Below, piece after piece: positions 7,666-41,826 of a DNA stretch of 44,587 nucleotides. Under the pieces are notes generated by a model, which ran no database searches, was not told where the DNA came from, and was given only the letters and a program-made list of their open reading frames with translations. Source of the stretch: a virus; UHGV virus genome UHGV-0201915, one strand, 5' to 3'. Position 1 is the stretch's first letter. Each line of letters opens with the position of its first letter. Made by a program: the position numbers and the translations under genes.

Positions 7666-8016
7666 ATGCTATCAGAAAAAGAGAAAGTGGCTTTGGACAA
7701 AAATATAACCGCAGTTCCTGAACCGCTTGAAATTGCGCCAGAGACTCGCAAAAACGCTTTTGGTGAATCAGTTGAATTTTATCAAGATGACACAGGAGCG
7801 CCAATTTATGATACTGACACAGTTTATCATTTGTTGATTGAGACAGAAACAGGTACAAAGGTATTTTTTGTACTATTCGAGCGTGCCCAGGAGTTACTTG
7901 ACGAATTTGAAGTAGAACTAGTAGCGGCAAAACTTTCAAAATACAGTTATGGTAAAACCTTCAAAAAGGAAATGAAGGAGACGATGAAAGAAATGGAGGA
8001 GATATTCAGTGAGTGA
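7666..8016 (+). CDS. Hypothetical protein (first gene of the recombination/replication block)
   Basis: 116 aa. GAGGTGA RBS. Confidence 0.5.
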   Translation: MLSEKEKVALDKNITAVPEPLEIAPETRKNAFGESVEFYQDDTGAPIYDTDTVYHLLIETETGTKVFFVLFERAQELLDEFEVELVAAKLSKYSYGKTFKKEMKETMKEMEEIFSE

Positions 8017-8734
8017 GTTTACTAGGGAAGATAATCAACTTTTTAATCTTCTTTACCAAATAGATGTAAAGGATGTAGCGGAGAAACGGAATAAGCTCAC
8101 CTACCTTTCTTGGGCATGGGCGTGGGCCGAAGTGAGTAAACGTGTCGACTCAATTGATTACTCAGTCTACAAGGACGAAGTAACCAAACAACCGTATATT
8201 TTTGATTCAAAAACAGGTTATATGGTCTTCACTGAAATTACGATCGATGGGGTAACGAGAGAAATGTGGCTACCAGTGATGGACAGTTCAAATAAGGCAA
8301 TGAAGGATGAGCCATATACCTACAAAGTCAAAGAGTACAAAGATAGTAAGTGGACAGGAAACTATATTGATCGCACTTGCGAAGCAGCAACAATGTTCGA
8401 CATTAACAAAACGATTATGCGGTGTTTGGTCAAGAATCTAGCTATGTTCGGATTAGGCCTATACATTTTCACAGGAGAAGATATGCCCGAAGATGTGAGC
8501 ATGTTAGAAGAGGCCAGCGATCGTAGTAAGAAACTATTTATTAAAACGATGCAAAAAATCGCAGATCAATACGATAAGGACTTGGATTGGATGATTTTAC
8601 AGCTTGCTGATACTGCCAAGATACCTGCTGATGATTCTAAGTGGACCAAGGGCGATTTAGGGATGCTCAAACGCGGTGTAGGCTGGCTAAAACAACAACT
8701 GGAAGATGCCGATAAAAGCAAACAAGAGAAGTGA
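8009..8734 (+). CDS. Hypothetical phage protein; position suggests a recombination/ssDNA-annealing function
   Basis: 241 aa. Its start overlaps the previous gene. The LTYLSWAWAWAEV motif was noted. No family was assigned with confidence. Confidence 0.35.
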   Translation: MSEFTREDNQLFNLLYQIDVKDVAEKRNKLTYLSWAWAWAEVSKRVDSIDYSVYKDEVTKQPYIFDSKTGYMVFTEITIDGVTREMWLPVMDSSNKAMKDEPYTYKVKEYKDSKWTGNYIDRTCEAATMFDINKTIMRCLVKNLAMFGLGLYIFTGEDMPEDVSMLEEASDRSKKLFIKTMQKIADQYDKDLDWMILQLADTAKIPADDSKWTKGDLGMLKRGVGWLKQQLEDADKSKQEK

Positions 8735-8739
8735 TCTAA

Positions 8740-9408
8740 ATGAATAACCTTTCTTACCTTGCAAAAATAACAAAAATTTCTGGAAGAAAAATCATTTTAG
8801 AACTCAAAGAAGAACTGAATATCGAAAGATTGAAGACGATTTTCAATGGATTTGATGGCGAGAGACAGGCGGAGCTTTTCATTAAAGATCCAAGAGGCTT
8901 CACTTCGCAACAGAGACGCTTTGTATTCGCTCTAATGCAGGATATATACATTTACACTGGGGAACCGTTGGAAAGCCTTAAAGACGTGTTCTATTGGCAA
9001 TTCAGATACTTCACAGGTAAGAACATTAGTTTATCTAATGAATCTGAAAACTCAGTGGATGAAATAGCAACACTTGCGGAACTTATCTTAGACTTCATTT
9101 TCGAGAATGATATCCCATTCAGAGAAGGGTATGAAATAGCTCCACAGAATCAGGAGTATTACTTCTACAAATGTGTCATGGCCCGTAAATGTTGTATTTG
9201 CGGCAAGCCTGCGGATATTTGCCATATAGAAACTGTCGGAGTCGGTCGGAATCGTAGGAAGATTGATCATACGAAACATACTTTTTACGCTGGGTGTCGA
9301 AAGCACCACAGTGAAGAGCATCAAATCGGAACACAAAACTTTTTAAATAAATATCAAATTATCCCAACCAAGTTAAACGCAGAATCAGTGAAGCAGTTGG
9401 GGATATAG
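8740..9408 (+). CDS. Hypothetical protein with C-terminal Cys/His-rich (HNH-like or zinc-binding) region
   Basis: 222 aa. The C-terminal region reads CVMARKCCICGKPADICHIE...HTKHTFYAGCRKHHSEEH. Confidence 0.4.
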   Translation: MNNLSYLAKITKISGRKIILELKEELNIERLKTIFNGFDGERQAELFIKDPRGFTSQQRRFVFALMQDIYIYTGEPLESLKDVFYWQFRYFTGKNISLSNESENSVDEIATLAELILDFIFENDIPFREGYEIAPQNQEYYFYKCVMARKCCICGKPADICHIETVGVGRNRRKIDHTKHTFYAGCRKHHSEEHQIGTQNFLNKYQIIPTKLNAESVKQLGI

Positions 9409-11888: not shown

Positions 11889-12362
11889 ATGATTAACAAT
11901 GTAGTTTTGGTCGGACGATTGACAAAAGATCCTGACCTACGATATACGGCAAATGGCACAGGAGTAGCAACATTCACTCTCGCAGTGAACAGAAACTTTA
12001 CCAATCAAGATGGGAACAGAGATGCAGACTTTATTAACTGCGTAATCTGGCGGAAGTCTGCTGAGACGTTAGCCAATTATGCTAAAAAGGGAACGCTGTT
12101 AGGTGTGATTGGCCGTATTCAAACAAGAAGCTATGAAAATCAGCAAGGACAACGTGTCTATGTAACAGAAGTAGTTGCTGAGAACTTCCAATTGCTTGAA
12201 TCACGTAGTGCGAGTGATCAGCGTCAGAGTAATAATGCCAGTGCTAACTCAAGTGGCAACTATGATCAATCAAATAAAAATAGTGTGCCTGACTTTGGTA
12301 GAGATAACGATCCTTTTAGTGGTTCATCGATTGACATCGGCGACGATGACCTGCCGTTTTAG
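11889..12362 (+). CDS. ssb: Single-stranded DNA-binding protein
   Basis: OB-fold N-terminus ([31 protein letters not shown]) and an acidic C-terminal tail ending DDDLPF. Confidence 0.95.
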
Positions 12363-12862: not shown

Positions 12863-13105
12863 ATGCATATAGCAAATATCTACGGCGAGTCTATCGTGGG
12901 TGAAGAAATCGAATATCTAGATCAACCCTACAAAAATATTATTATCGTGGAGGATTCTAACGGTGACAAACACGTGGTTCACAAAGACACGATCGATAGG
13001 AATCGTAAGCGAAAACCAAGCCGTGCAGGAGTGAGGTTTGACCTTCTGGGTTGTCAGGCGCATGGAAGAAAAGGGACGTTGAGAAAATGGCGGAGGATTG
13101 GTTAG
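12863..13105 (+). CDS. Hypothetical protein
   Basis: 80 aa. Confidence 0.4.
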   Translation: MHIANIYGESIVGEEIEYLDQPYKNIIIVEDSNGDKHVVHKDTIDRNRKRKPSRAGVRFDLLGCQAHGRKGTLRKWRRIG

Positions 13106-13111
13106 GACATA

Positions 13112-13154
13112 AGAAAAAGCTCCGCAAACTGGAGCTATCACAGAGCTTTTAGAG
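13112..13154. terminator. Bidirectional terminator between convergent genes
   Basis: Hairpin AGCTCC gcaaact GGAGCT (13118-13136). The upstream AAGAAAAA gives a minus-strand U-tract. A downstream TTTT run is also present. Confidence 0.5.
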
Positions 13155-13166
13155 GACAGGACTTAT

Positions 13167-13412
13167 CTAACTAAGATAAGCCCAATCTTCTAAACGGATT
13201 GTTTGACCAAGAAGAAATAACTCCCCTTCTTCTACTCCACATTTTGTACAGATCAAAACTCCTTCAACTTGTCTGGAAGTAGAATTGAGAATGGGTTCGC
13301 CATCGAGTAATTCTTCGCCACAGCGTGGGCACCAACAATCACTAGAAGGATTTTCTAAAAATAAGGCAGTTTCATTTTTAAGCTCATTGGCTAATTGATC
13401 AGTATTTGACAA
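13167..13412 (-). CDS. Zinc-ribbon protein with own promoter (minus-strand moron)
   Basis: CWCPRCG...CTKCG motif. On the minus strand, a TATAAT -10 precedes a GAGGTGA RBS, 5 nt, then a TTG start (13412). The ORF track extends to a GTG at 13454. Confidence 0.5.
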   Translation of the reverse strand: MSNTDQLANELKNETALFLENPSSDCWCPRCGEELLDGEPILNSTSRQVEGVLICTKCGVEEGELFLLGQTIRLEDWAYLS

Positions 13413-13550
13413 TTTTATCACCTCAAGAAAATTATACAGGGGAAAAATTGACACAGCGAACTTTGTTTACAGAATAAGAGCTAAATACGATCAAACCAAT
13501 GAAAAGGAAATAAAAAAGATAAGGTAACGGAAGACTTAGAGGAGGAAAGT

Positions 13551-13745
13551 TTGATGAAAAGAGTTAAATATTTTGATGCAGAAAATCCAGACAAGTTGGA
13601 AAGGGAAATAAACGAGTTTCTTAGTGAAACGAATGTTTCCTTTGTAGACATAAAGTTTCAATCTGAAAAAAGCAGTGAAGGTTATGGCGAAGAGATTCTT
13701 CATTCGGTTTTTCTGATTTATGAAGAACCGAAAATAGGTCAATAA
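13551..13745 (+). CDS. Small hypothetical protein
   Basis: 64 aa. GAGGAGGAAAG RBS. Confidence 0.45.
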   Translation: MMKRVKYFDAENPDKLEREINEFLSETNVSFVDIKFQSEKSSEGYGEEILHSVFLIYEEPKIGQ

Positions 13746-13784
13746 GCGACCACTATCACGTAGGAAAAAGAAAGAAGAGAATTT

Positions 13785-14270
13785 ATGAAGCCAATTTTGG
13801 ACATGTGCTGTGGAGGCAAAATGTTTTATTACGACAAAGAGAATCCTGATGTCGAGTTTGTAGATAAGCGAGTTTACTTTGAGCAGCTGGCGGATCATGC
13901 AATTGATGTTAATCCAACCACAGTCGCAGATTTTAGAAATTTACCATTCGAGGATAACAGCTATCACTTAGTTGTTTTTGATCCACCGCATGTTTCCTAT
14001 GCTGGTGAAGATTCTTGGATGTTTAAAAAATATGGATCGTTGGATAAAGATACTTGGAAAGAAGATTTGGCTAAAGGTTTTGATGAAGCTATGCGCGTCC
14101 TAAAACCATACGGAACTTTAGTTTTTAAATGGAATGACGTTCAATATCCACCAGCTGATATTTTGAGAAACATTCCATACAAGCCTATTTTTCTGCAAAA
14201 AGTGACTAAAACGGCGAAGGGGACACGGACTCACTGGATGGTGTTTATGAAATTACCAGACGAAGAATAG
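13785..14270 (+). CDS. Putative SAM-dependent DNA methyltransferase (motif I-like LDMCCGGK, motif IV DPPH)
   Basis: 161 aa. LDMCCGG resembles the AdoMet-binding motif. VVFDPPH resembles the (D/N)PP(Y/F/H) catalytic motif of amino-methyltransferases. Confidence 0.45.
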   Translation: MKPILDMCCGGKMFYYDKENPDVEFVDKRVYFEQLADHAIDVNPTTVADFRNLPFEDNSYHLVVFDPPHVSYAGEDSWMFKKYGSLDKDTWKEDLAKGFDEAMRVLKPYGTLVFKWNDVQYPPADILRNIPYKPIFLQKVTKTAKGTRTHWMVFMKLPDEE

Positions 14271-14314
14271 TTCCGATAACCACGCCAATTAAGTAGGAAA
14301 AGGAGGGATAGCAC

Positions 14315-15091
14315 ATGATTGTTTGGGCACTATTTGACAGCGGAAATGGTTGCTATTCCCAAGCAGCAAAGAATTTTCCAGAGATAGAACTCTACAGTAT
14401 TGGATTGGACAAAGAGCATAAGAACGACCATTTTATCAATCTCAATTTAGCTACTTATTCAATCGATGGTAAGGCAAATCCCTTGTTCAAATCATTGGAT
14501 AAGTTACCAAGACCGGATGTAATTTTAGCAAGTCCGCCATGTGAGTCATGGTCAGTTGCAAGCGCAATGAAGGGTGGTAATGCGTCATGGAAGCAAGAAA
14601 CAGGAGATGCATTATTCCAACCACAAACACCATTGTCTCGTTTCACAATAAGAGATTTCATTGACTACAGAGAAGTACAGTTCAAACCTGAAAAATCGTT
14701 GATAAATCGAATAAATGGTGAGTTGTGTATTTTCAATACAATTCAAATCATTTTACATTATGATCCGAAATATTACGTAATTGAAAATCCTGCAGCTAGT
14801 CGAATTTGGGAGTATGTGGATCGTGTTTTAGGATTTGAGATTCAACATGACAATCTAACCTATTACAACAATTATGGTTATCCAATTAAAAAGCCAACCC
14901 GATTTAAAAGCAATATAGAATTGAAGCTAAAAAAAGAAAAAATTCCTAATGAGGTTGATTGGGGAAAGTTTGATCGTAAAGGTGGAGCCTATAATTCTAG
15001 GTCAAATATTCCTCTGAAATTGGTGAATCAAATTTTTTCTAGAATATTGGAGGCGAGCAATGAAACGAATACTGAATTATCCAGGCAGTAA
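14315..15091 (+). CDS. C5-cytosine DNA methyltransferase-like protein (short)
   Basis: LFDSGNG (motif I, FxGxG-like), ILASPPCESWS (motif IV, PC dipeptide) and YVIENPAAS (motif VI, ENV-like) appear in canonical order. At 258 aa it is shorter than typical C5 methyltransferases. Confidence 0.5.
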   Translation: MIVWALFDSGNGCYSQAAKNFPEIELYSIGLDKEHKNDHFINLNLATYSIDGKANPLFKSLDKLPRPDVILASPPCESWSVASAMKGGNASWKQETGDALFQPQTPLSRFTIRDFIDYREVQFKPEKSLINRINGELCIFNTIQIILHYDPKYYVIENPAASRIWEYVDRVLGFEIQHDNLTYYNNYGYPIKKPTRFKSNIELKLKKEKIPNEVDWGKFDRKGGAYNSRSNIPLKLVNQIFSRILEASNETNTELSRQ

Positions 15092-15848
15092 ATGGACAAT
15101 GGCCGAGAAGATTGTTGATCTATTCCCTGAACATATAACATATCTTGAGCCGTTCTTTGGCTCAGGTGCAATGTTTTTCACCAAAGCACCATCAAGAATA
15201 GAAACAATTAATGATTTGAACAGTCGAGTGGTTAATTTCTTTGCAGTGTGCAGGGAGCAACCGTATAAGTTAGCCGAAGCTGTTTATCTTACGCCTATTA
15301 GTCGGTGGGAGCAACAAGAATCATTAGAACTAGATCCGGATCCATTAGAAGATGCACGGCGGTTTCTCGTTTTAAGTTGGCAGTCGATCGGCGGTATTCA
15401 ACGTCATTTAACAGGTTGGAGATCAAACATCACGACTTATGGATCAAAGACAATTAACGAGTGGACCGCATTACCTGAGTTAATTATTGAAGTGGCCAAT
15501 CGTTTAAAGATGGCTCAAATAGAAAATCAGGATGCACTTCAGCTGTTACAACGCTATAACCGCAAAGAAGTATTTGCTTATGTTGATCCGCCTTATCTAA
15601 TGAGTACACGCAAAGGACGCTACTATCAAACAGAACTAGAAGATGATCGGCAGCCTGAATTACTCGAGATCCTGAAAAACTTCGAGGGCAAAGTAATGCT
15701 TTCCGGCTACGAAAATGATCTATACAATCATCAGCTGTCGGATTGGCACAAGCTTCAATTTCAAAGTAACGCTGAAGCAGGAGAGCGAAGACTCGAAACA
15801 ATTTGGTGTAACTATGAGCCGAGCGGTCAGCTGTCATTATTTGGTTGA
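15060..15848 (+). CDS. Dam-family (D12 class) N6-adenine DNA methyltransferase
   Basis: N-terminal NYPGSKW...YLEPFFGSGAMFF and a later VDPPYL (DPPY) motif, characteristic of Dam/D12 methyltransferases. Its start overlaps the upstream gene. Confidence 0.85.
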   Translation: MKRILNYPGSKWTMAEKIVDLFPEHITYLEPFFGSGAMFFTKAPSRIETINDLNSRVVNFFAVCREQPYKLAEAVYLTPISRWEQQESLELDPDPLEDARRFLVLSWQSIGGIQRHLTGWRSNITTYGSKTINEWTALPELIIEVANRLKMAQIENQDALQLLQRYNRKEVFAYVDPPYLMSTRKGRYYQTELEDDRQPELLEILKNFEGKVMLSGYENDLYNHQLSDWHKLQFQSNAEAGERRLETIWCNYEPSGQLSLFG

Positions 15849-15855
15849 TCACTCG

Positions 15856-15883
15856 AGATCCGGTAACTCAGCCTATCAAGTAA
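15856..15883. repeat. Intergenic boundary element copy A (AGATCCGGTAAC...)
   Basis: AGATCCGGTAAC lies 8 nt after the Dam stop. This copy is more diverged downstream (TCAGCCTATCAAGTAAG). Confidence 0.5.
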
Positions 15884-15898
15884 GAAAAGAGGGATGAA

Positions 15899-16420
15899 AT
15901 GGAGAAACAAGATTTAATCAAAGAAATTAATAAAGAAAAATATGATTTTTCAAAACCGGAAACGTCACTCAACAGTTCGGATTATAAGGAAGGATACAAT
16001 GATGCTTCTGATGACATTCTAGATATTATCAAGAAACTAGACGAACCGCAGAAAGTCAAAGTGCCGCAGTTTGTTGCTAAGTGGATTTCGAAATGCCAAG
16101 AATTAAACTGGAACTTGTCAGATTTGCTTGCACCAGAAATTTTTGATTCAACTTTCGCTTTCAACACGAAAGAGTGGTTACGACAGGATAAGCAAAACTA
16201 CGATATTCTAGCTCGTGCTTGGCTAGACGGCTACGAGGTCGAGGAAGAGCCGAAATATACAATGCCAGTACCCTATGTCTCATATCCAGTGCATTACAGT
16301 ATTAGAGACGACGGAGTAATTACTTTCACACAAGGGAACCCACAGACGTTTACACAAGCTGAGCTAGACAAGTATTTTCCTGATATTAAGCAGTTTGCGG
16401 TGCCGGTCGAGAAAGTGTAG
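15899..16420 (+). CDS. Hypothetical phage protein
   Basis: 173 aa. AAAGAGGGA RBS. Confidence 0.45.
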   Translation: MEKQDLIKEINKEKYDFSKPETSLNSSDYKEGYNDASDDILDIIKKLDEPQKVKVPQFVAKWISKCQELNWNLSDLLAPEIFDSTFAFNTKEWLRQDKQNYDILARAWLDGYEVEEEPKYTMPVPYVSYPVHYSIRDDGVITFTQGNPQTFTQAELDKYFPDIKQFAVPVEKV

Positions 16421-16428
16421 GTGTGAGA

Positions 16429-16845
16429 ATGAGTAAAGAAAGCCGATGCGAATTAGCAAATGAGCTTATTCGTTTAATCGCTTCTACTGGTCGACAATTC
16501 TTTAATTACGAAGAAAACGGCGGCTCTATTGGACGGTTTGAGTTAAGAAGTGGGAGAACGTATTTTATTGATGGTTATTTAGGTAAATCAATATATGCCT
16601 ATGAGAATCGCTTTTTTAGACAGAAATTTACAGAAGGCGGAACGATGCAAGCTTTAATCTTGGATATCGCCGAGTGGATTCGAACTGGTAAAGCTACAAA
16701 CGCGAAAAATGGATACGGTGGCATCTATTGTGATCATTGGGGCTATCCAGATGAAGATATGAAAAAGGTAAGAGAGAAAGCTATAGAGATTGGCTTTTCG
16801 AAAGGGCTAGATACAGATATCTACAAGTTTAACTATATTAATTAA
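16429..16845 (+). CDS. Hypothetical protein
   Basis: 138 aa, start taken at the ATG after the AGGTGTGAG RBS. Confidence 0.45.
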   Translation: MSKESRCELANELIRLIASTGRQFFNYEENGGSIGRFELRSGRTYFIDGYLGKSIYAYENRFFRQKFTEGGTMQALILDIAEWIRTGKATNAKNGYGGIYCDHWGYPDEDMKKVREKAIEIGFSKGLDTDIYKFNYIN

Positions 16846-16872
16846 GATCCGGTAACCGAAGCGATTGCATAG
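16845..16872. repeat. Intergenic boundary element copy B: AGATCCGGTAAC-N7-ATTGCATAG
   Basis: It begins inside the TAA stop of the upstream gene. It matches copy C at 22 of 28 positions; the conserved ends flank a 7-nt variable core. Confidence 0.6.
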
Positions 16873-16877
16873 AAAAA

Positions 16878-16915
16878 GACCGCTGAACATTGGGTGGCAG
16901 CGGTCTCTGAGCTAG
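16878..16915 (-). terminator. Hairpin 1 (GACCGCTG/CAGCGGTC 8-bp stem) followed by TGAGCTAG; minus-strand-oriented intrinsic terminator
   Basis: The A-run (AAAAAG) lies on the plus-strand 5' side, which gives the U-tract only for leftward transcripts. Confidence 0.45.
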
Positions 16916-16986
16916 TTGAAATATGCTTTCAGTTTAATGAAATTAAAAAGGAAGAATCTAGCTCGTCTGAATTATACCATAAAAAA

Positions 16987-17028
16987 GACCGCGTCATATG
17001 AGGTGACAGCGGTCAGTGAGCTAGGGGG
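16987..17028 (-). terminator. Hairpin 2 (GACCGCGTCA/TGACAGCGGTC), a paralogous copy of hairpin 1, followed by GTGAGCTAG
   Basis: Same architecture as hairpin 1 (AAAAAAGACCGC...CAGCGGTC..TGAGCTAG). It is a tandem duplication about 110 bp apart. Confidence 0.45.
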
Positions 17029-17111
17029 TATTCATAATGGTTATAGAGTAACTATTGTGATCTAGCTCAAACATATTATACAACAAAAAATAGTAAATGG
17101 AAGTGAATTAT

Positions 17112-17519
17112 ATGATACCGAAATTTAGAGCGTGGGATAAAGAAGCAGATACGATGCATGATGTAACATCAATATGGTTCGATAGAAACAATGAACAATA
17201 CAAGTTGGGGCATGTTAGTTTCCCAAGTCAAGAAACAGTAGATACAATATTTGATAATTTCGAACTCATGCAATCAACAGGACTGAAAGACAAGAACGGC
17301 GTTGAGATATTTGAGGGGGATATAGTGAAAGTGACTAATCATCCTTTTCAAAAGAAAGAAGACAGTGCAGGCATCGAAATAGATGGCGATTACTTAATCG
17401 GATGGTCTGATCATAATTTAACTTGGCTAGCTGGCGATTTACTTTTGTATCAGCTAAAACCTTATATCGAAGTTATAGGCAACATCTACGAAAACCCAGA
17501 GTTATTGGAGGTGCCATAG
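17112..17519 (+). CDS. YopX-family phage protein
   Basis: MIPKFRAWDKEADTMHDV is the characteristic YopX N-terminus. GGAAGTGA RBS. The ORF track begins at 17097. Confidence 0.8.
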   Translation: MIPKFRAWDKEADTMHDVTSIWFDRNNEQYKLGHVSFPSQETVDTIFDNFELMQSTGLKDKNGVEIFEGDIVKVTNHPFQKKEDSAGIEIDGDYLIGWSDHNLTWLAGDLLLYQLKPYIEVIGNIYENPELLEVP

Positions 17520-17710
17520 TGAGAGATGAATTTATGGTCAGATACACAAATAAGCACGGTTTTGGTTGCACTCTAGTCGTTTATGCTGCCACGTTGTTTG
17601 AAGCAAAAGAGAAGGCTGAAAAAGAACTTGGTGATTATCTAAAGTCCATTAATGAGATTGTCAACTGCTCATTTGCGCGTGAATTGATTCGCAGTCAAGA
17701 CTTTGAGTAG
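17519..17710 (+). CDS. Small hypothetical protein
   Basis: 63 aa. The GTG start overlaps the YopX stop (TAGTG) after a GGAGGTG RBS. Confidence 0.4.
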   Translation: MRDEFMVRYTNKHGFGCTLVVYAATLFEAKEKAEKELGDYLKSINEIVNCSFARELIRSQDFE

Positions 17711-17736
17711 ATCCGGGAACGTCGCCTATTGCATAG
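17709..17736. repeat. Intergenic boundary element copy C: AGATCCGGGAAC-N7-ATTGCATAG
   Basis: It begins inside the TAG stop of the upstream gene. See copy B. Confidence 0.6.
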
Positions 17737-17752
17737 GGTTAGGAGGTATGAA

Positions 17753-18004
17753 ATGAACTTTATTTTCTTGATTAGTGGAGTAATTATCGGATTTGCTTAT
17801 CGATCTATAACATTTAATTATAGATTTTCATTAATGGTAAACAGCTTTGAAAAGATAAAAGTGTTTAACATTGAACTGATGGAGAAGCAACAACAGAATA
17901 GCAATCGTTATTACTACATCAAGGGAGTCTTGGACGGATGCCAAGGAACCGGAGAAGTACTTCTTGGAAAAGAAAATGTTAGTAAGGCTGTAAATAATGA
18001 TTGA
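17753..18004 (+). CDS. Small membrane protein
   Basis: AGGAGGT RBS, then MNFIFLISGVIIGFAYRSI (a hydrophobic helix). Confidence 0.45.
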   Translation: MNFIFLISGVIIGFAYRSITFNYRFSLMVNSFEKIKVFNIELMEKQQQNSNRYYYIKGVLDGCQGTGEVLLGKENVSKAVNND

Positions 18005-18135
18005 CGAACTTAAATGTTGAGTTAGCATACAGGAGTTAAAAACACAATATATTGTACGCGAAAATACGTTCCTACGATATATTGTGGATAAACCTGTTAA
18101 TATGTGTATAACAAATACTTTGGGGAATAATTTGA

Positions 18136-18648
18136 TTGGGAGGAAACGATTTGGAAATTCAAGTACATGAACTGTCAGAATCGCAGTTAAATGAATTATC
18201 GGATATGATTGTTGCAAAAATGATGAAGTCGCAAGAATCAAAAAGAAAACAAATAAGATCAAATGCCTATCATAATACTATGATGCTGTTAAGAAATTAC
18301 AAGAAATTGAAAGCTCACTGTCAAATTGTAGAAGCAGAAGTTGAAGAAGAATTTGGTACGATGTGGAACGAATGGAGATTCGATATTGATAGTTTACTTG
18401 AACATAAAGCTAAAACCGCAAAGCTAATGAAACACGTAGATTTCGCGTTAAGAGAGTTCAAGAAAGATCAGCCAGAAGATTATGATTTAATCAATATGAA
18501 ATACCTTCTTCCAAGGTGTTTCTCAGATGAGTTTATTGCTGGACAGAAGAATATTGATCGTACAACCGTCGGTAGGAGAATTAAAAAAGCCTCGGAAGAA
18601 TTAGCAATAATTCTTTTTGGGATTGATGTTGTAATTGATTGGTTCTAA
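18136..18648 (+). CDS. arpU: ArpU-like late-gene transcriptional regulator (sigma region-4-like C-terminus)
   Basis: About 165 aa. The C-terminus has an HTH-like segment (DRTTVGRRIKKASEELAII). It sits immediately upstream of the packaging genes, where Firmicutes phages carry ArpU/RinA-type activators. The true start may be the TTG at 18151. Confidence 0.5.
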   Translation: MGGNDLEIQVHELSESQLNELSDMIVAKMMKSQESKRKQIRSNAYHNTMMLLRNYKKLKAHCQIVEAEVEEEFGTMWNEWRFDIDSLLEHKAKTAKLMKHVDFALREFKKDQPEDYDLINMKYLLPRCFSDEFIAGQKNIDRTTVGRRIKKASEELAIILFGIDVVIDWF

Positions 18649-18904: not shown

Positions 18905-19027
18905 GTCACTGTGGCGGAATAGGTAGACGCTTATAGGAAAGATAAGGTTTTTGCGTTGCAGGCAACGGCTTCGTTGTGGGCGCTCTTACGAATAAAACCA
19001 TGCAAGGTGCAAATCCTTGCCAGTGGC
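18905..19027 (+). ncRNA. tRNA-like structured element 1 (Leu/Ser-type D-arm and T-arm flanking an ~70-nt insert); not a canonical tRNA
   Basis: GTGGCGGAATAGGTAGACGC is a type-II tRNA D-arm consensus. CAAGG-TGCAAAT-CCTTG is a T-arm-like stem-loop. The termini GTCACTG/CAGTGGC can pair as an acceptor stem. The spacing is incompatible with a standard cloverleaf. Confidence 0.25.
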
Positions 19028-19140
19028 TTAGAGATTGAGCAATAAGCATGAGGCAATCAGACCACTGAATTATCCCAGGTCTTTTGCTGGATAAACAATC
19101 TCAATTACAAGCAAGCTTGCAGGAGGTAGCTCCTCCGAGT

Positions 19141-19216
19141 TGACGTGAAGCATCATTGGTGATGCGTCTGACTGTTTTGGTTGGAAATGAGGTCGGTTCG
19201 AATCCGGCCACGTCAA
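19141..19216 (+). tRNA. tRNA-like element 2 (76 nt): perfect 7-bp acceptor, D-arm and canonical T-arm; non-canonical anticodon arm (possible UUU anticodon)
   Basis: Acceptor TGACGTG/CACGTCA. D-arm GCAT-CATTGGT-GATGC. T-arm GTCGG-TTCGAAT-CCGGC with the GGTTCGAATCC consensus. The anticodon region CTGAC-TGTTTTG-GTTGG needs G.U pairs and an extra nucleotide. Confidence 0.4.
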
Positions 19217-19295
19217 TAGCAACCGAGGATATAAGTGGTACGTGGAGGAACAGCACGATGACGGTGCTATGTAGGTTGCACAAATACATAATCAA

Positions 19296-19322
19296 GATCG
19301 CTTCGGCGGTCTTTTTTATTTT
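19296..19322 (+). terminator. Intrinsic terminator ending the structured-RNA locus
   Basis: GATCGC-TTCG-GCGGTC stem-loop with a tetraloop, followed by TTTTTTATTTT. Confidence 0.7.
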
Positions 19323-19538
19323 GGATACAAAAATAGACCACTACCGGGTAATAGTGGTCAGGAATTAAATGAAAAAGATGTTAAAGGGTTGTTAGACAAG
19401 TATAACATCATAGCGTTTACATAGCAATACAAAAAAGAGCCACTGTTTCCGCAGCGATCTATCTGTGAAACGTAAACAATTTATACATAAAGCATACAAT
19501 AATAACGCTTACATTGCAACGCAGAAAGGGATAGAGCA

Positions 19539-41754: not shown

Positions 41755-41826
41755 GTACCCTTAGTTCAATTGGTAGAATACTCCGGTTCATATCGGAAGA
41801 TGCGGGTTTGAGGCCTGCGGGGTACG
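41755..41826 (+). tRNA. tRNA-like remnant (72 nt): good acceptor, D- and T-arms; defective 8-nt anticodon loop (TTCATAT, CAT-like)
   Basis: Acceptor GTACCCT/GGGGTAC, D-arm GTTC-AATTGGTA-GAAT, T-arm GCGGG-TTTGAGG-CCTGC. The anticodon stem CTCCG/CGGAA has a mismatch and an 8-nt loop. No CCA follows. Possible pseudo-tRNA or att-site tRNA fragment. Confidence 0.3.

Follow-up and report, generated by a model that had tools for sequence, protein, structure and literature searches.

The window, meaning the whole 44,587-nucleotide stretch of DNA analysed here, belongs to an Enterococcus-type prophage and holds an accessory-gene region flanked by the replication and packaging modules, and within it seven copies of an element of about 28 nt with the consensus AG[T/A]TCCGGTAAC-N4-[G/C]C-N-AT-N5-TA[G/A]. 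All seven lie on the plus strand within 13118-17709 and are listed below with the genes between them, two genes further upstream and two candidate units on the minus strand. Cassettes were assigned from ORFs with Pfam and PHROG matches, and scores in bits are those of a position weight matrix (PWM).

8009-8734, plus: Sak-type (Rad52-like) single-strand annealing protein (PF06378, 4.5e-45; PHROG 659, 6.9e-63)
8740-9408: putative HNHc_6 nuclease, adjoining Sak (PF16784, 1.2e-33)
13118-13145, plus: element copy of a hairpin-forming subtype, AGCTCCGCAAACTGGAGCTATCACAGAG (30.1 bits)
13517-13544, plus: degenerate element copy, AGATAAGGTAACGGAAGACTTAGAGGAG (19.0 bits)
13551-18004, plus: array of promoterless cassettes between elements, made up of the cassettes below
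13551-13745, plus: Cse60-like cassette
13736-13763, plus: degenerate element copy, AGGTCAATAAGCGACCACTATCACGTAG (17.0 bits)
13785-14270, plus: methyltransferase cassette
14269-14296, plus: element copy, AGTTCCGATAACCACGCCAATTAAGTAG (35.1 bits)
14315-15848, plus: C5-like and D12 Dam-type methylases, overlapping
15856-15883, plus: element copy A, AGATCCGGTAACTCAGCCTATCAAGTAA (31.0 bits)
15899-16845, plus: DUF1642 gene and a gene without assignment
16845-16872, plus: element copy B, AGATCCGGTAACCGAAGCGATTGCATAG (sequence match to the full 28-mer pattern)
16873-16979, minus: candidate small-RNA unit 1 (fold -27.4 kcal/mol, z -3.2)
16981-17083, minus: candidate small-RNA unit 2, its tandem paralogue (fold -26.2 kcal/mol, z -3.3)
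17112-17710, plus: YopX gene and a gene without assignment
17709-17736, plus: element copy C, AGATCCGGGAACGTCGCCTATTGCATAG (30.9 bits)
17753-18004, plus: gene without assignment

The D12-class adenine methylase match stands at 1.4e-23, while that to a C5-methylase is weak (2.2e-5); the methyltransferases, YopX and DUF1642 probably serve counter-defence and host takeover. The recombination machinery of the phage includes Sak, SSB, RusA and an HNH nuclease, and the sole recombinase found is the prophage integrase, a tyrosine recombinase on the opposite strand at 710-1846, 11 kb off.

Exact matches to AGATCCGGTAAC start at 15856 and 16845, and an exact match to AGATCCGGGAAC at 17709, all on the plus strand. 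At up to two mismatches (<=2) the 12-mer has 7 matches in the window against 1.8 expected, a count reached by 0/100 shuffles, and the full 28-mer pattern is matched only at 16845-16872 and 17709-17736, for an expectation of 0.00. The PWM, built from other loci only and applied at a threshold of >12 bits, finds 13118, 13517, 13736, 14269, 15856, 16845 and 17709 and nothing in the rest of the 44.6 kb, the late-gene junctions included; shuffled sequences gave a mean of 0.33 sites and a maximum of 3. The element is repeated at gene boundaries beyond chance, as is expected of a linker sequence. A first-pass annotation had counted three copies (A, B and C), all of them real but short of the total of seven, and had set the identity of B and C at 22/28 positions, which we correct to 21/28 (75%).

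The intercistronic joint and the minus-strand hairpins

The element is the whole intercistronic joint. The upstream gene finishes in frame over positions 0-11, positions 13-21 form a short spacer, and over positions 22-28 a TAG/TAA end is followed by GAAAGGAGG, or AAGGAGG is contained within, the 3′ end adjoining or including the Shine-Dalgarno sequence of the next gene. Upstream genes stop in one fixed frame, at a TAG at position 0, which is optional, or at the TAA inside GG-TAA-C (positions 9-11), which is near-universal. A long upstream ORF runs in frame f0 in 59/93 contexts, and upstream stops fall at position 0 (TAG, n=24), position 9 (TAA, n=19) and position -3 (n=8). Downstream start codons cluster at positions 36-37 and 44-47, that is 8-19 nt beyond position 28, while about a third of the contexts (35/99) lack a ribosome-binding site there and run on into a hairpin or other sequence. 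This anatomy gives every cassette, whether of one promoterless gene or two, a 5′ leader that is semi-conserved and a 3′ tail that is conserved. Neither the fixed reading-frame relation to upstream stops nor the Shine-Dalgarno sequence at the 3′ end figured in the first-pass annotation.

The copies in the window occupy this joint in different ways. The first two bases of copy 14269 finish the TAG stop of the methyltransferase ORF 13785-14270 (f0 is open for 168 codons and the stop is position 0), and a Shine-Dalgarno sequence and ATG 14315 follow. The AG of copy C likewise finishes the TAG stop of ORF 17519-17710, ahead of a Shine-Dalgarno AGGAGG and ATG 17753, and the first A of copy B closes the TAA stop of ORF 16423-16845. 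Copy A lies 7 nt past the Dam-type methylase TGA at 15846-15848 (ORF 15060-15848) and in frame with it, this TGA sharing the frame of the other copies' stops, with ATG 15899 downstream; the claim that the 12-mer starts at or inside the stop codons of three consecutive transcription units therefore stands for 16845 and 17709 but not for copy A. Copy 13736 contains the TAA stop of ORF 13551-13745, offset by 1 nt, and copy 13517 lies in the 5′ leader of the same ORF with its 3′ end forming the Shine-Dalgarno sequence, downstream of sigma-70-like promoter matches at 13406-13435 and 13448-13475 (promoter scan). Copy 13118 begins 12 nt past the stop of ORF 12863-13105, and its stem, with an A-run before it, also reads as the minus-strand terminator of the gene at 13167-13454 (terminator scan, 13136-13118). 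This subtype, with relatives in L012, L016, L017, L018, L024 and L047, is the only one among the elements to form a hairpin.

Over 102 distinct element instances RNAalifold returned no consensus pair and no covariation, and the column pairs with the highest mutual information were not Watson-Crick; on these two analyses RNA structure was ruled out as the basis of the element. The promoter scan placed no promoter on any copy, and by eye a sigma-70 promoter or an ECF-type GGAAC/TGTAAC -35 box has the wrong spacing to -10-like hexamers.

Copy B is followed by paralogous hairpins, at 16873-16915 and 16982-17024, that are 79% identical. As the A-runs lie ahead of the stems, only the minus strand gives a terminator reading, the plus strand having no U-run; on the minus strand, stems of 8-11 pairs run into U5-U6, as in intrinsic (Rho-independent) terminators. 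An alignment of 12 homologues contains 7 compensatory terminator stem pairs and one G-U pair possible on the minus strand only. Stem, U-run and compensatory pairs bear out the first reading of these hairpins as minus-strand terminators in a plus-strand operon.

Each hairpin also ends a self-contained minus-strand unit with its own -10 box, a feature that had been overlooked, and the two tandem units, each with its own TATAAT, look like small-RNA genes. Unit 1 has an extended -10, TGGTATAAT (16979->16971), a stem P1, GAGCUAG/CUAGCUC, pairing 16964-16958 with 16915-16909, and a terminator stem (16905-16878) with its U-run (16877-16873). Unit 2 repeats this order with TATAAT (17080->17075), P1 (17068-17062 with 17024-17018), terminator stem (17014-16987) and U-run (16986-16981), and the tandem is marked by direct repeats D4 and D8. 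Homologues occur in about 25 viral contigs, always on the strand opposite to the elements. Rfam 15 at gathering score found only the tRNA at 41755 in the whole window; permissive scans gave no match at E<=1 over 13000-18100 and nothing credible over 16780-17160, where isrD, the best match in the hairpin region, scored 20.6 bits (gathering score 37). Paired with 51 start regions of the window, the candidate small RNAs gave duplex energies no better than shuffled RNA did.

Reassortment of flanking genes among related phages

The family was assembled from 42 related stretches plus the window (43 in all), drawn from IMG/VR viral contigs and from Enterococcus prophages whose hosts are Enterococcus avium, raffinosus, malodoratus and dongliensis. 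It comprises 152 element instances, arrayed at 5-8 copies per locus with a median spacing of 858 nt; 0 of the 43 stretches have matches on both strands. The related stretches seldom extend as far upstream as Sak. Columns T4, C12, C18, A20 and T21 hardly vary. Neither megablast with 15000-18500 as query nor a sensitive search using a consensus of 49 nt gave more than trivial matches in 50,697 phage records, and at present the element family is seen in prophages and metagenomic viral contigs alone. A literature search for the element sequence gave unrelated primer matches only.

In related phages the same element joins differing upstream and downstream genes. Flanks fall into 75 upstream and 72 downstream classes in 103 combinations, the classes not being independent observations, and multiple partners occur for 21 upstream classes and for 19 downstream classes. 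The window, L006, L003 and L001 form a complete 2x2 square of upstream and downstream classes; the 28-mer of copy B is identical in the other three, with other genes attached. The flanks in the square match the window at about 98% identity (L006 over 16543-16878, L003 over 16833-17329), and the exchanges it records are therefore recent. The first-pass proposal that the elements bound cassette-like gene units is upheld, and the search of related phages that it called for finds the flanked cassettes varying between genomes, with the element as the joint.

Pairs with different upstream but the same downstream genes are 72% identical over positions 1-12 (background 67%) and 94% over positions 13-28, whereas pairs with the same upstream but different downstream genes are 90% and 69% identical over these intervals. 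In the former, identity rises sharply from background to ~1.0 between positions 12 and 13. The 5′ half of the element thus follows the upstream gene and the 3′ half the downstream gene, and crossovers therefore fall inside the element; hybrid variants exist, such as AGTTCCGGTAAC+CGAAGCGATTGCATAG in L024. Of 59 distinct BLAST endpoints in 13-18 kb, which are not independent observations, 15 fall within elements +-10 nt against 4 expected (p = 6e-6). By half-element identity and by BLAST endpoints alike, homology breaks inside the element, as a linker sequence would have it.

Junctions occur at several positions: at 12|13, at about 21|22 (as where AGATCCGGCAACGTCGCC[A/T]A[T/C] is followed by three different 3′ ends), or past 28. 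The variable 7-nt core described in the first-pass annotation is better understood as a junction zone, positions 13-19, between the upstream-gene and downstream-gene halves, and the idea of a site with conserved ends, a variable core and one fixed point of action gives way to these several positions, as homologous rather than site-specific exchange would give.

Explanations for the conserved joint

We consider it probable that this intercistronic joint serves as a boundary or linker sequence for cassette exchange among temperate phages of the Enterococcus avium group; the evidence for exchange is comparative throughout. In a cell that harbours two phages of this kind, one of them possibly a resident prophage, similarity over ~28-40 nt at two joints would suffice for short-homology recombination, with the phage-encoded Sak (Rad52-like) annealing protein as the probable catalyst. 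Every recombinant would stay expressible because the joint provides both an upstream stop and a downstream ribosome-binding site, and recombination between adjacent direct copies would delete a cassette or turn it into a circle. The sequence may be conserved through second-order selection for exchangeability, through homogenisation that the exchanges bring about, or through an added expression function.

The minimal efficient pairing segment of Red-beta is 23-27 bp, and Rad52-like recombinases show relaxed recombination on diverged sequence (PMC3945230). At many junctions the perfectly identical stretch is just 4-12 nt long (TAAC or TCCGGTAAC), short of this published minimum, which implies that the parental elements were once more alike or that the mechanism is more relaxed or different. 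The near-invariant columns are unexplained by recombination alone, and an expression or binding function may be the primary constraint on the element.

An alternative that we judge possible but rather doubtful is that the element is primarily an mRNA expression signal, its part as a recombination joint being a by-product of conservation. One possibility is an operator recognised by an RNA-binding protein or an endoribonuclease of phage or host origin, much as T4 RegA and RegB act on targets at early ribosome-binding sites; another is a termination-reinitiation spacer setting the translation level of each cassette. Strict co-orientation with transcription, the fixed register with upstream stop and downstream Shine-Dalgarno sequence, single near-invariant columns not demanded by homology, confinement to one operon and one temporal class, and the placing of copy 13517 in a 5′ leader with no gene upstream would all suit such a signal, and a 13-bp repeat of Cluster K mycobacteriophages has been proposed for translation initiation (PMC3203893). 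The element, however, has no consensus secondary structure, covariation or Rfam match at E<=1, is missing from late-gene junctions of the same phage, and continues in 35/99 contexts with hairpin or other sequence in place of a ribosome-binding site; the expression reading is moreover compatible with recombination and does not exclude it.

More speculatively, the elements together with the Sak/HNH pair, and perhaps the antisense small-RNA units, would form a dedicated system by which temperate Firmicute phages acquire cassettes, an 'integron without an integrase' that prefers to exchange at the TAA|C stop. We think this improbable; if true, phages would trade anti-defence and accessory genes often, with all recombinants expressible. 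Still less credence goes to an integron-like, site-specific system whose enzyme acts at a defined point, e.g. after TAA in TAAC. The co-oriented promoterless cassettes, each ending in a conserved stop-bearing site, do resemble an integron array, identity does jump sharply between positions 12 and 13, and an HNHc_6 nuclease gene adjoins Sak, but the junction position is not unique (12|13, ~21|22, past 28), the element has no inverted repeats and no foldable attC-like structure, and the only recombinase is the prophage integrase at the far genome end. With IntI also missing, an attC-like or site-specific site was rejected.

The first-pass annotation had pointed to recognition sequences of Dam-type (GATC) and HpaII-type C5 (CCGG) methyltransferases in the core; were the core a methylation target, its modification would put the cassettes under regulation or shield the joints. 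GATCCGG is indeed present in copies A, B and C, and a D12-class adenine methylase and a weak C5-methylase match are encoded just upstream, but among 94 distinct variants GATC is kept in 19, CCGG in 31 and both in 17, the commonest form being AGTTCCGG and some forms reading TCCGAT, which leaves the proposal scarcely tenable. A hidden coding role, as a -1-frame peptide (VPVTTPIK*, DPVTEAIA*) or a conserved C-terminal tripeptide (K-F/I-R), has synonymous-looking variation in frame 2 (ACC/ACG/ACT, ATT/ATC/ATA, GCN) and frame 0 (CGN, NTC) to recommend it but is almost certainly wrong, as frame 2 closes a few codons upstream in most contexts, T4 and A10, third-codon positions in that frame, are invariant, C-terminal tripeptides are diverse (QFM, DLL, KVN, PLR, others), and the 12-mer is better conserved where untranslated (identity 0.91 with the stop at position 0 against 0.75 with the stop at position 9).

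As a joint for cassette exchange, the element would exemplify, with unusual clarity, the 'linker' sequences long postulated for modular phage evolution. Since 1978 it has been debated whether phage mosaicism arises via special linkers or by random illegitimate joining followed by selection, and reviews hold that linkers are not findable at most boundaries. Here a single linker family fills the whole accessory region of a phage group, with crossovers mapped to within a few bases, and the linker question becomes open to experiment. The in-frame stop, spacer and Shine-Dalgarno sequence suggest a natural design for cassette swaps in engineered Gram-positive phages, and annotators gain a marker of cassette boundaries and of a candidate antisense small-RNA family.

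Comparison with known systems

The attC sites of integrons fold as single strands through imperfect inverted repeats (R''/L'' with L'/R') and carry RYYYAAC and GTTRRRY boxes; they are recombined by the IntI integrase at one fixed position beside attI and Pc. Integrons share with the element array co-oriented promoterless cassettes of one or two genes, and attC, like the element, is a conserved cassette-end site finishing ...AAC and often holding the gene's stop codon. The element lacks internal complementarity and covariation, only its ...TAAC resembles the inverse core, the listed element instances show no GTTRRRY partner, and the window has no adjacent IntI-type integrase with attI and a cassette promoter.

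The SAS/ESAS of Cluster K mycobacteriophages, a 13-bp sequence (GGGATAGGAGCCC) 3-7 bp upstream of start codons (Pope et al. 2011, PMC3203893), is like the element asymmetric, in a single orientation and confined to non-structural genes, and lies at the ribosome-binding site of many unrelated genes, sometimes with the upstream stop inside. Its sequence is unrelated, and it is start-codon-anchored and proposed for translation (PMC3203893), whereas the element is tied to the upstream stop, has twice the length and gives direct evidence of cassette reassortment. With another consensus and starts 8-19 nt past position 28, the element is an analogue and not a member of SAS.

In T4-type phages, PeSL combine a sigma-70 promoter with a terminator stem-loop (Arbiol et al. 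2010, PMC2839356; Comeau et al. 2014, PMC4122927). They too are short conserved repeats between small non-essential genes in a hyperplastic part of the genome, bound indels and replacements between related phages, and have been interpreted as points of homologous exchange between otherwise unrelated DNA (PMC2839356, PMC4122927). PeSL are nevertheless transcription signals, whereas the element consists of translation signals (in-frame stop, spacer, Shine-Dalgarno) inside an operon, and its setting is a temperate siphovirus-type prophage of a Gram-positive host rather than a T4-type phage. Neither a PeSL stem-loop nor a PeSL promoter appears in the elements, RNAalifold giving no pair and the promoter scan no site on them.

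Susskind and Botstein in 1978 reportedly invoked boundary or linker sequences in the modular theory of phage evolution, and Clark et al. in 2001 are said to have treated such sequences in lambdoid phages. Both works are cited in PMC3029335. Like the element, these linkers are short conserved gene-boundary sequences that give homology for module exchange. The element differs in that one family stands at essentially every non-overlapping junction of the accessory region, 5-8 per genome, and in that crossovers can be placed within it.

The element array and its relatives

The window is a temperate siphovirus-type prophage in which the element array occupies the accessory-gene stretch, with replication on one side and packaging on the other:

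710-1846, - strand, integrase
CI-like repressor
antirepressor
8009-8734, Sak annealing protein
8740-9408, HNHc_6 nuclease
replisome organiser and RusA
11889-12362, SSB
small-gene run after SSB: Cse60-like gene, three methyltransferases, DUF1642, YopX and unknowns
18136-18648, regulator, 3' of the small-gene run
from 19782, terminase small and large subunits

The 12-mer highlighted by the first-pass annotation is present as AGATCCGGTAAC at 15856 and 16845 and as AGATCCGGGAAC at 17709, all on the + strand; with up to two mismatches it has seven matches in the window against 1.8 expected, a number reached in none of 100 shuffles. The 28-mer pattern AGATCCGGKAAC-N7-ATTGCATAG matches the window at 16845 and 17709 only (0.00 expected). 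These copies, B and C, are alike at 21 of 28 positions rather than the 22 first counted, and copy A (15856), said to start in a stop codon, begins 7 nt past the TGA of its gene. The count of three copies was also too low: a repeat finder already gives additional copies at 14269 and 13118, and a weight matrix trained solely on outside loci, the window being excluded, finds seven sites above a 12-bit cut-off (13118, 13517, 13736, 14269, 15856, 16845 and 17709), all on the + strand, with none in the remainder of the 44.6 kb (shuffles: mean 0.33 sites, maximum 3). Between 13105 and 17753 all 39-50-nt gene junctions are made up of the element, which the window scan did not find at overlapping or abutting gene pairs or at any late-gene junction.

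Three consecutive methyltransferase-like genes lie at 13785-15848 (Methyltransf_11-like, a weak C5-type match and D12 Dam-type), the last two overlapping by 32 nt (15060-15091) as one cassette. A reverse-oriented 95-aa gene (13167-13454, -) matches a zinc ribbon below threshold (19.6 bits, cut-off 25). It is accompanied by two TTGACA promoter-like sites and has an element copy on each side; block 13146-13516 looks like an inserted unit with its own transcription.

Outside the window, the exact 28-mer occurs in seven IMG/VR contigs and the degenerate pattern in 24 viral contigs and, with one genome scanned per bacterial species, in Enterococcus malodoratus, E. dongliensis, E. avium and E. raffinosus. 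The bacterial scan also gave four matches in unrelated MAGs, each without another copy and about as many as chance predicts. Ten loci were taken as chance matches and left out of the statistics (L026, L027, L028, L031, L033, L035, L039, L043, L045 and L052, from Thermoguttaceae, Acidobacteriaceae, a deltaproteobacterium, a Clostridia MAG and others); none holds a second copy. The family then comprises 152 instances in 43 stretches (42 related loci and the window), none with matches on both strands, in arrays of 5-8 instances whose median spacing of 858 nt corresponds to one or two small genes between neighbours. Segments 94-98% identical are common to the window, E. avium and E. raffinosus prophages and several viral contigs, suggesting a host in the Enterococcus avium group. 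A search of 50,697 sequenced phages gave no match to the element, and a literature search did not find its sequence.

The element as a gene junction and reassortment point

The elements are points at which upstream and downstream genes reassort. The copy B 28-mer is identical in three outside loci, L006, L001 and L003: the window's upstream gene precedes it in L006 and another gene in L001 and L003, while on the 3' side L003 has the window's hairpin region and L001 and L006 a different gene. All four upstream-downstream combinations therefore exist, and the common flanks are ~98% identical to the window, so these exchanges are recent. As predicted, flanked cassettes vary among related phages: the flanks sort into 75 classes upstream and 72 downstream, joined in 103 combinations, and 21 of the upstream and 19 of the downstream classes have several partners. 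BLAST alignments of the window to the loci end at elements more often than expected (15 of 59 endpoints, against 4). Block 13146-13516, for example, is missing after the homologous element of locus L047, where a different, forward cassette follows.

Pairs with different upstream but the same downstream flanks are 72% identical over positions 1-12 (background 67%) and 94% over positions 13-28; for the same upstream and different downstream flanks the values are 90% and 69%. Each half thus moves with the gene next to it, 5' with upstream and 3' with downstream, placing the joints inside the element. Joints occur at 12|13, near 21|22 and past position 28, and such a variety of positions fits homologous exchange better than fixed-site exchange.

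Elements also carry the stop of the upstream gene and the ribosome-binding site of the downstream gene. Across 102 distinct instances T4, A10, C12, C18, A20, T21 and A27 are near-invariant. The long upstream ORF keeps a single frame with respect to the element in 59 of 93 contexts, ending at a TAG overlapping positions 0-2 (24 cases), at the TAA within GG-TAA-C, positions 9-11 (19), or one codon 5' of the element (8); the TAA is invariant because the ORF stops there in a fixed frame. In frames 1 and 2, stops are frequent at position 22 (TAA) and position 26 (TAG or TAA). On its 3' side the element either closes with TAG/TAA followed by GAAAGGAGG or includes AAGGAGG, with the next start codon clustering at positions 36-37 or 44-47; in about a third of contexts an A-run and hairpin follow instead.

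A serious alternative account of the conservation, and one compatible with exchange, is that an mRNA-level function (operator, processing site or reinitiation spacer) maintains the sequence. At the level of structure, RNAalifold gives no conserved pair, Watson-Crick covariation is absent, and Rfam has no element match at E<=1. The proposed methylation core is without comparative support: of 94 variants, 19 keep GATC and 31 keep CCGG. A frame-2 peptide or conserved C-terminal tripeptide, suggested by synonymous-looking variation, is rejected: frame 2 is closed just 5' of the element in most contexts, T4 and A10 are invariant despite being wobble positions, actual protein tails are diverse, and 12-mer conservation is 0.91 where untranslated against 0.75 where translated, so that the constraint acts on nucleotides.

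Candidate small RNAs and tRNA-like features

The hairpins 3' of copy B belong to two tandem ~105-nt units (16873-17090) that resemble small-RNA genes oriented against the operon. Each has a minus-strand -10 box (TGGTATAAT at 16979-16971 in one, TATAAT at 17080-17075 in the other), a GAGCUAG/CUAGCUC stem and a terminator hairpin with U5-6 (fold z-scores -3.2 and -3.3). Fifteen distinct homologues in ~25 viral contigs are always opposite in strand to the elements, and their U-run adjoins the reverse complement of an element. Seven compensatory pairs in the terminator stem among homologues, together with the U-run, bear out the original reading of the hairpins as minus-strand terminators, and where A is replaced by G in the first stem, pairing (G-U) survives on the minus strand only. 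The Rfam scan of the hairpin region gave no match, and target prediction none better than shuffles. The units are modular in turn (loci L001, L006, L024, L041 and others), one body occurring with different terminator hairpins and vice versa; bodies are of three or four types, most sharing a UUCCUU-containing loop.

Further features lie downstream, two of them read by eye (the 18912-19050 arms and the 9-nt loop):

18912-19050, +, GTGGCGGAATAGGTAGACGC and later GCAAGGTGCAAATCCTTGC, resembling the D-arm and T-arm of a long-arm tRNA with extra sequence between; no tool calls a gene here
19141-19216, +, tRNA gene within the phage, between regulator and terminase genes; tRNA-Lys (UUU) by ARAGORN, 31.8 bits in a local Rfam scan, absent from the whole-window gathering scan; anticodon loop of 9 nt against the usual 7
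19288-19368, back-to-back terminator-like hairpins on opposite strands (19294-19313, +; 19359-19336, -), 3' of the tRNA and 5' of the terminase operon
41755-41826, +, tRNA match near the right prophage end (Rfam 34.6 bits, no anticodon assigned by ARAGORN), possibly the attachment-site tRNA itself or a hybrid form

Proposed exchange mechanism and known systems

Cassette exchange would proceed by short-homology recombination, the probable agent being the phage's Rad52-like annealing protein Sak with SSB, RusA and the adjoining nuclease. The minimal efficient pairing segment is 23-27 bp for Red-beta against 31-34 bp for RecA, and Rad52-like recombinases remain active on diverged sequence in which no perfect stretch exceeds 11 bp (PMC3945230). 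At 28 nt, or ~40 nt with the Shine-Dalgarno sequence, the element is within this published range.

The boundary-sequence concept is old and reportedly fails for most joints in phage mosaics (PMC3029335). The element can be set against better-known systems. In position, its nearest counterpart is the start-associated sequence (SAS) of Cluster K mycobacteriophages (PMC3203893), and the best-documented functional analogue is PeSL of T4-type phages, a promoter-terminator cassette (PMC2839356, PMC4122927). The element lacks the defining features of PeSL, attC and SAS; even so, it works like PeSL.
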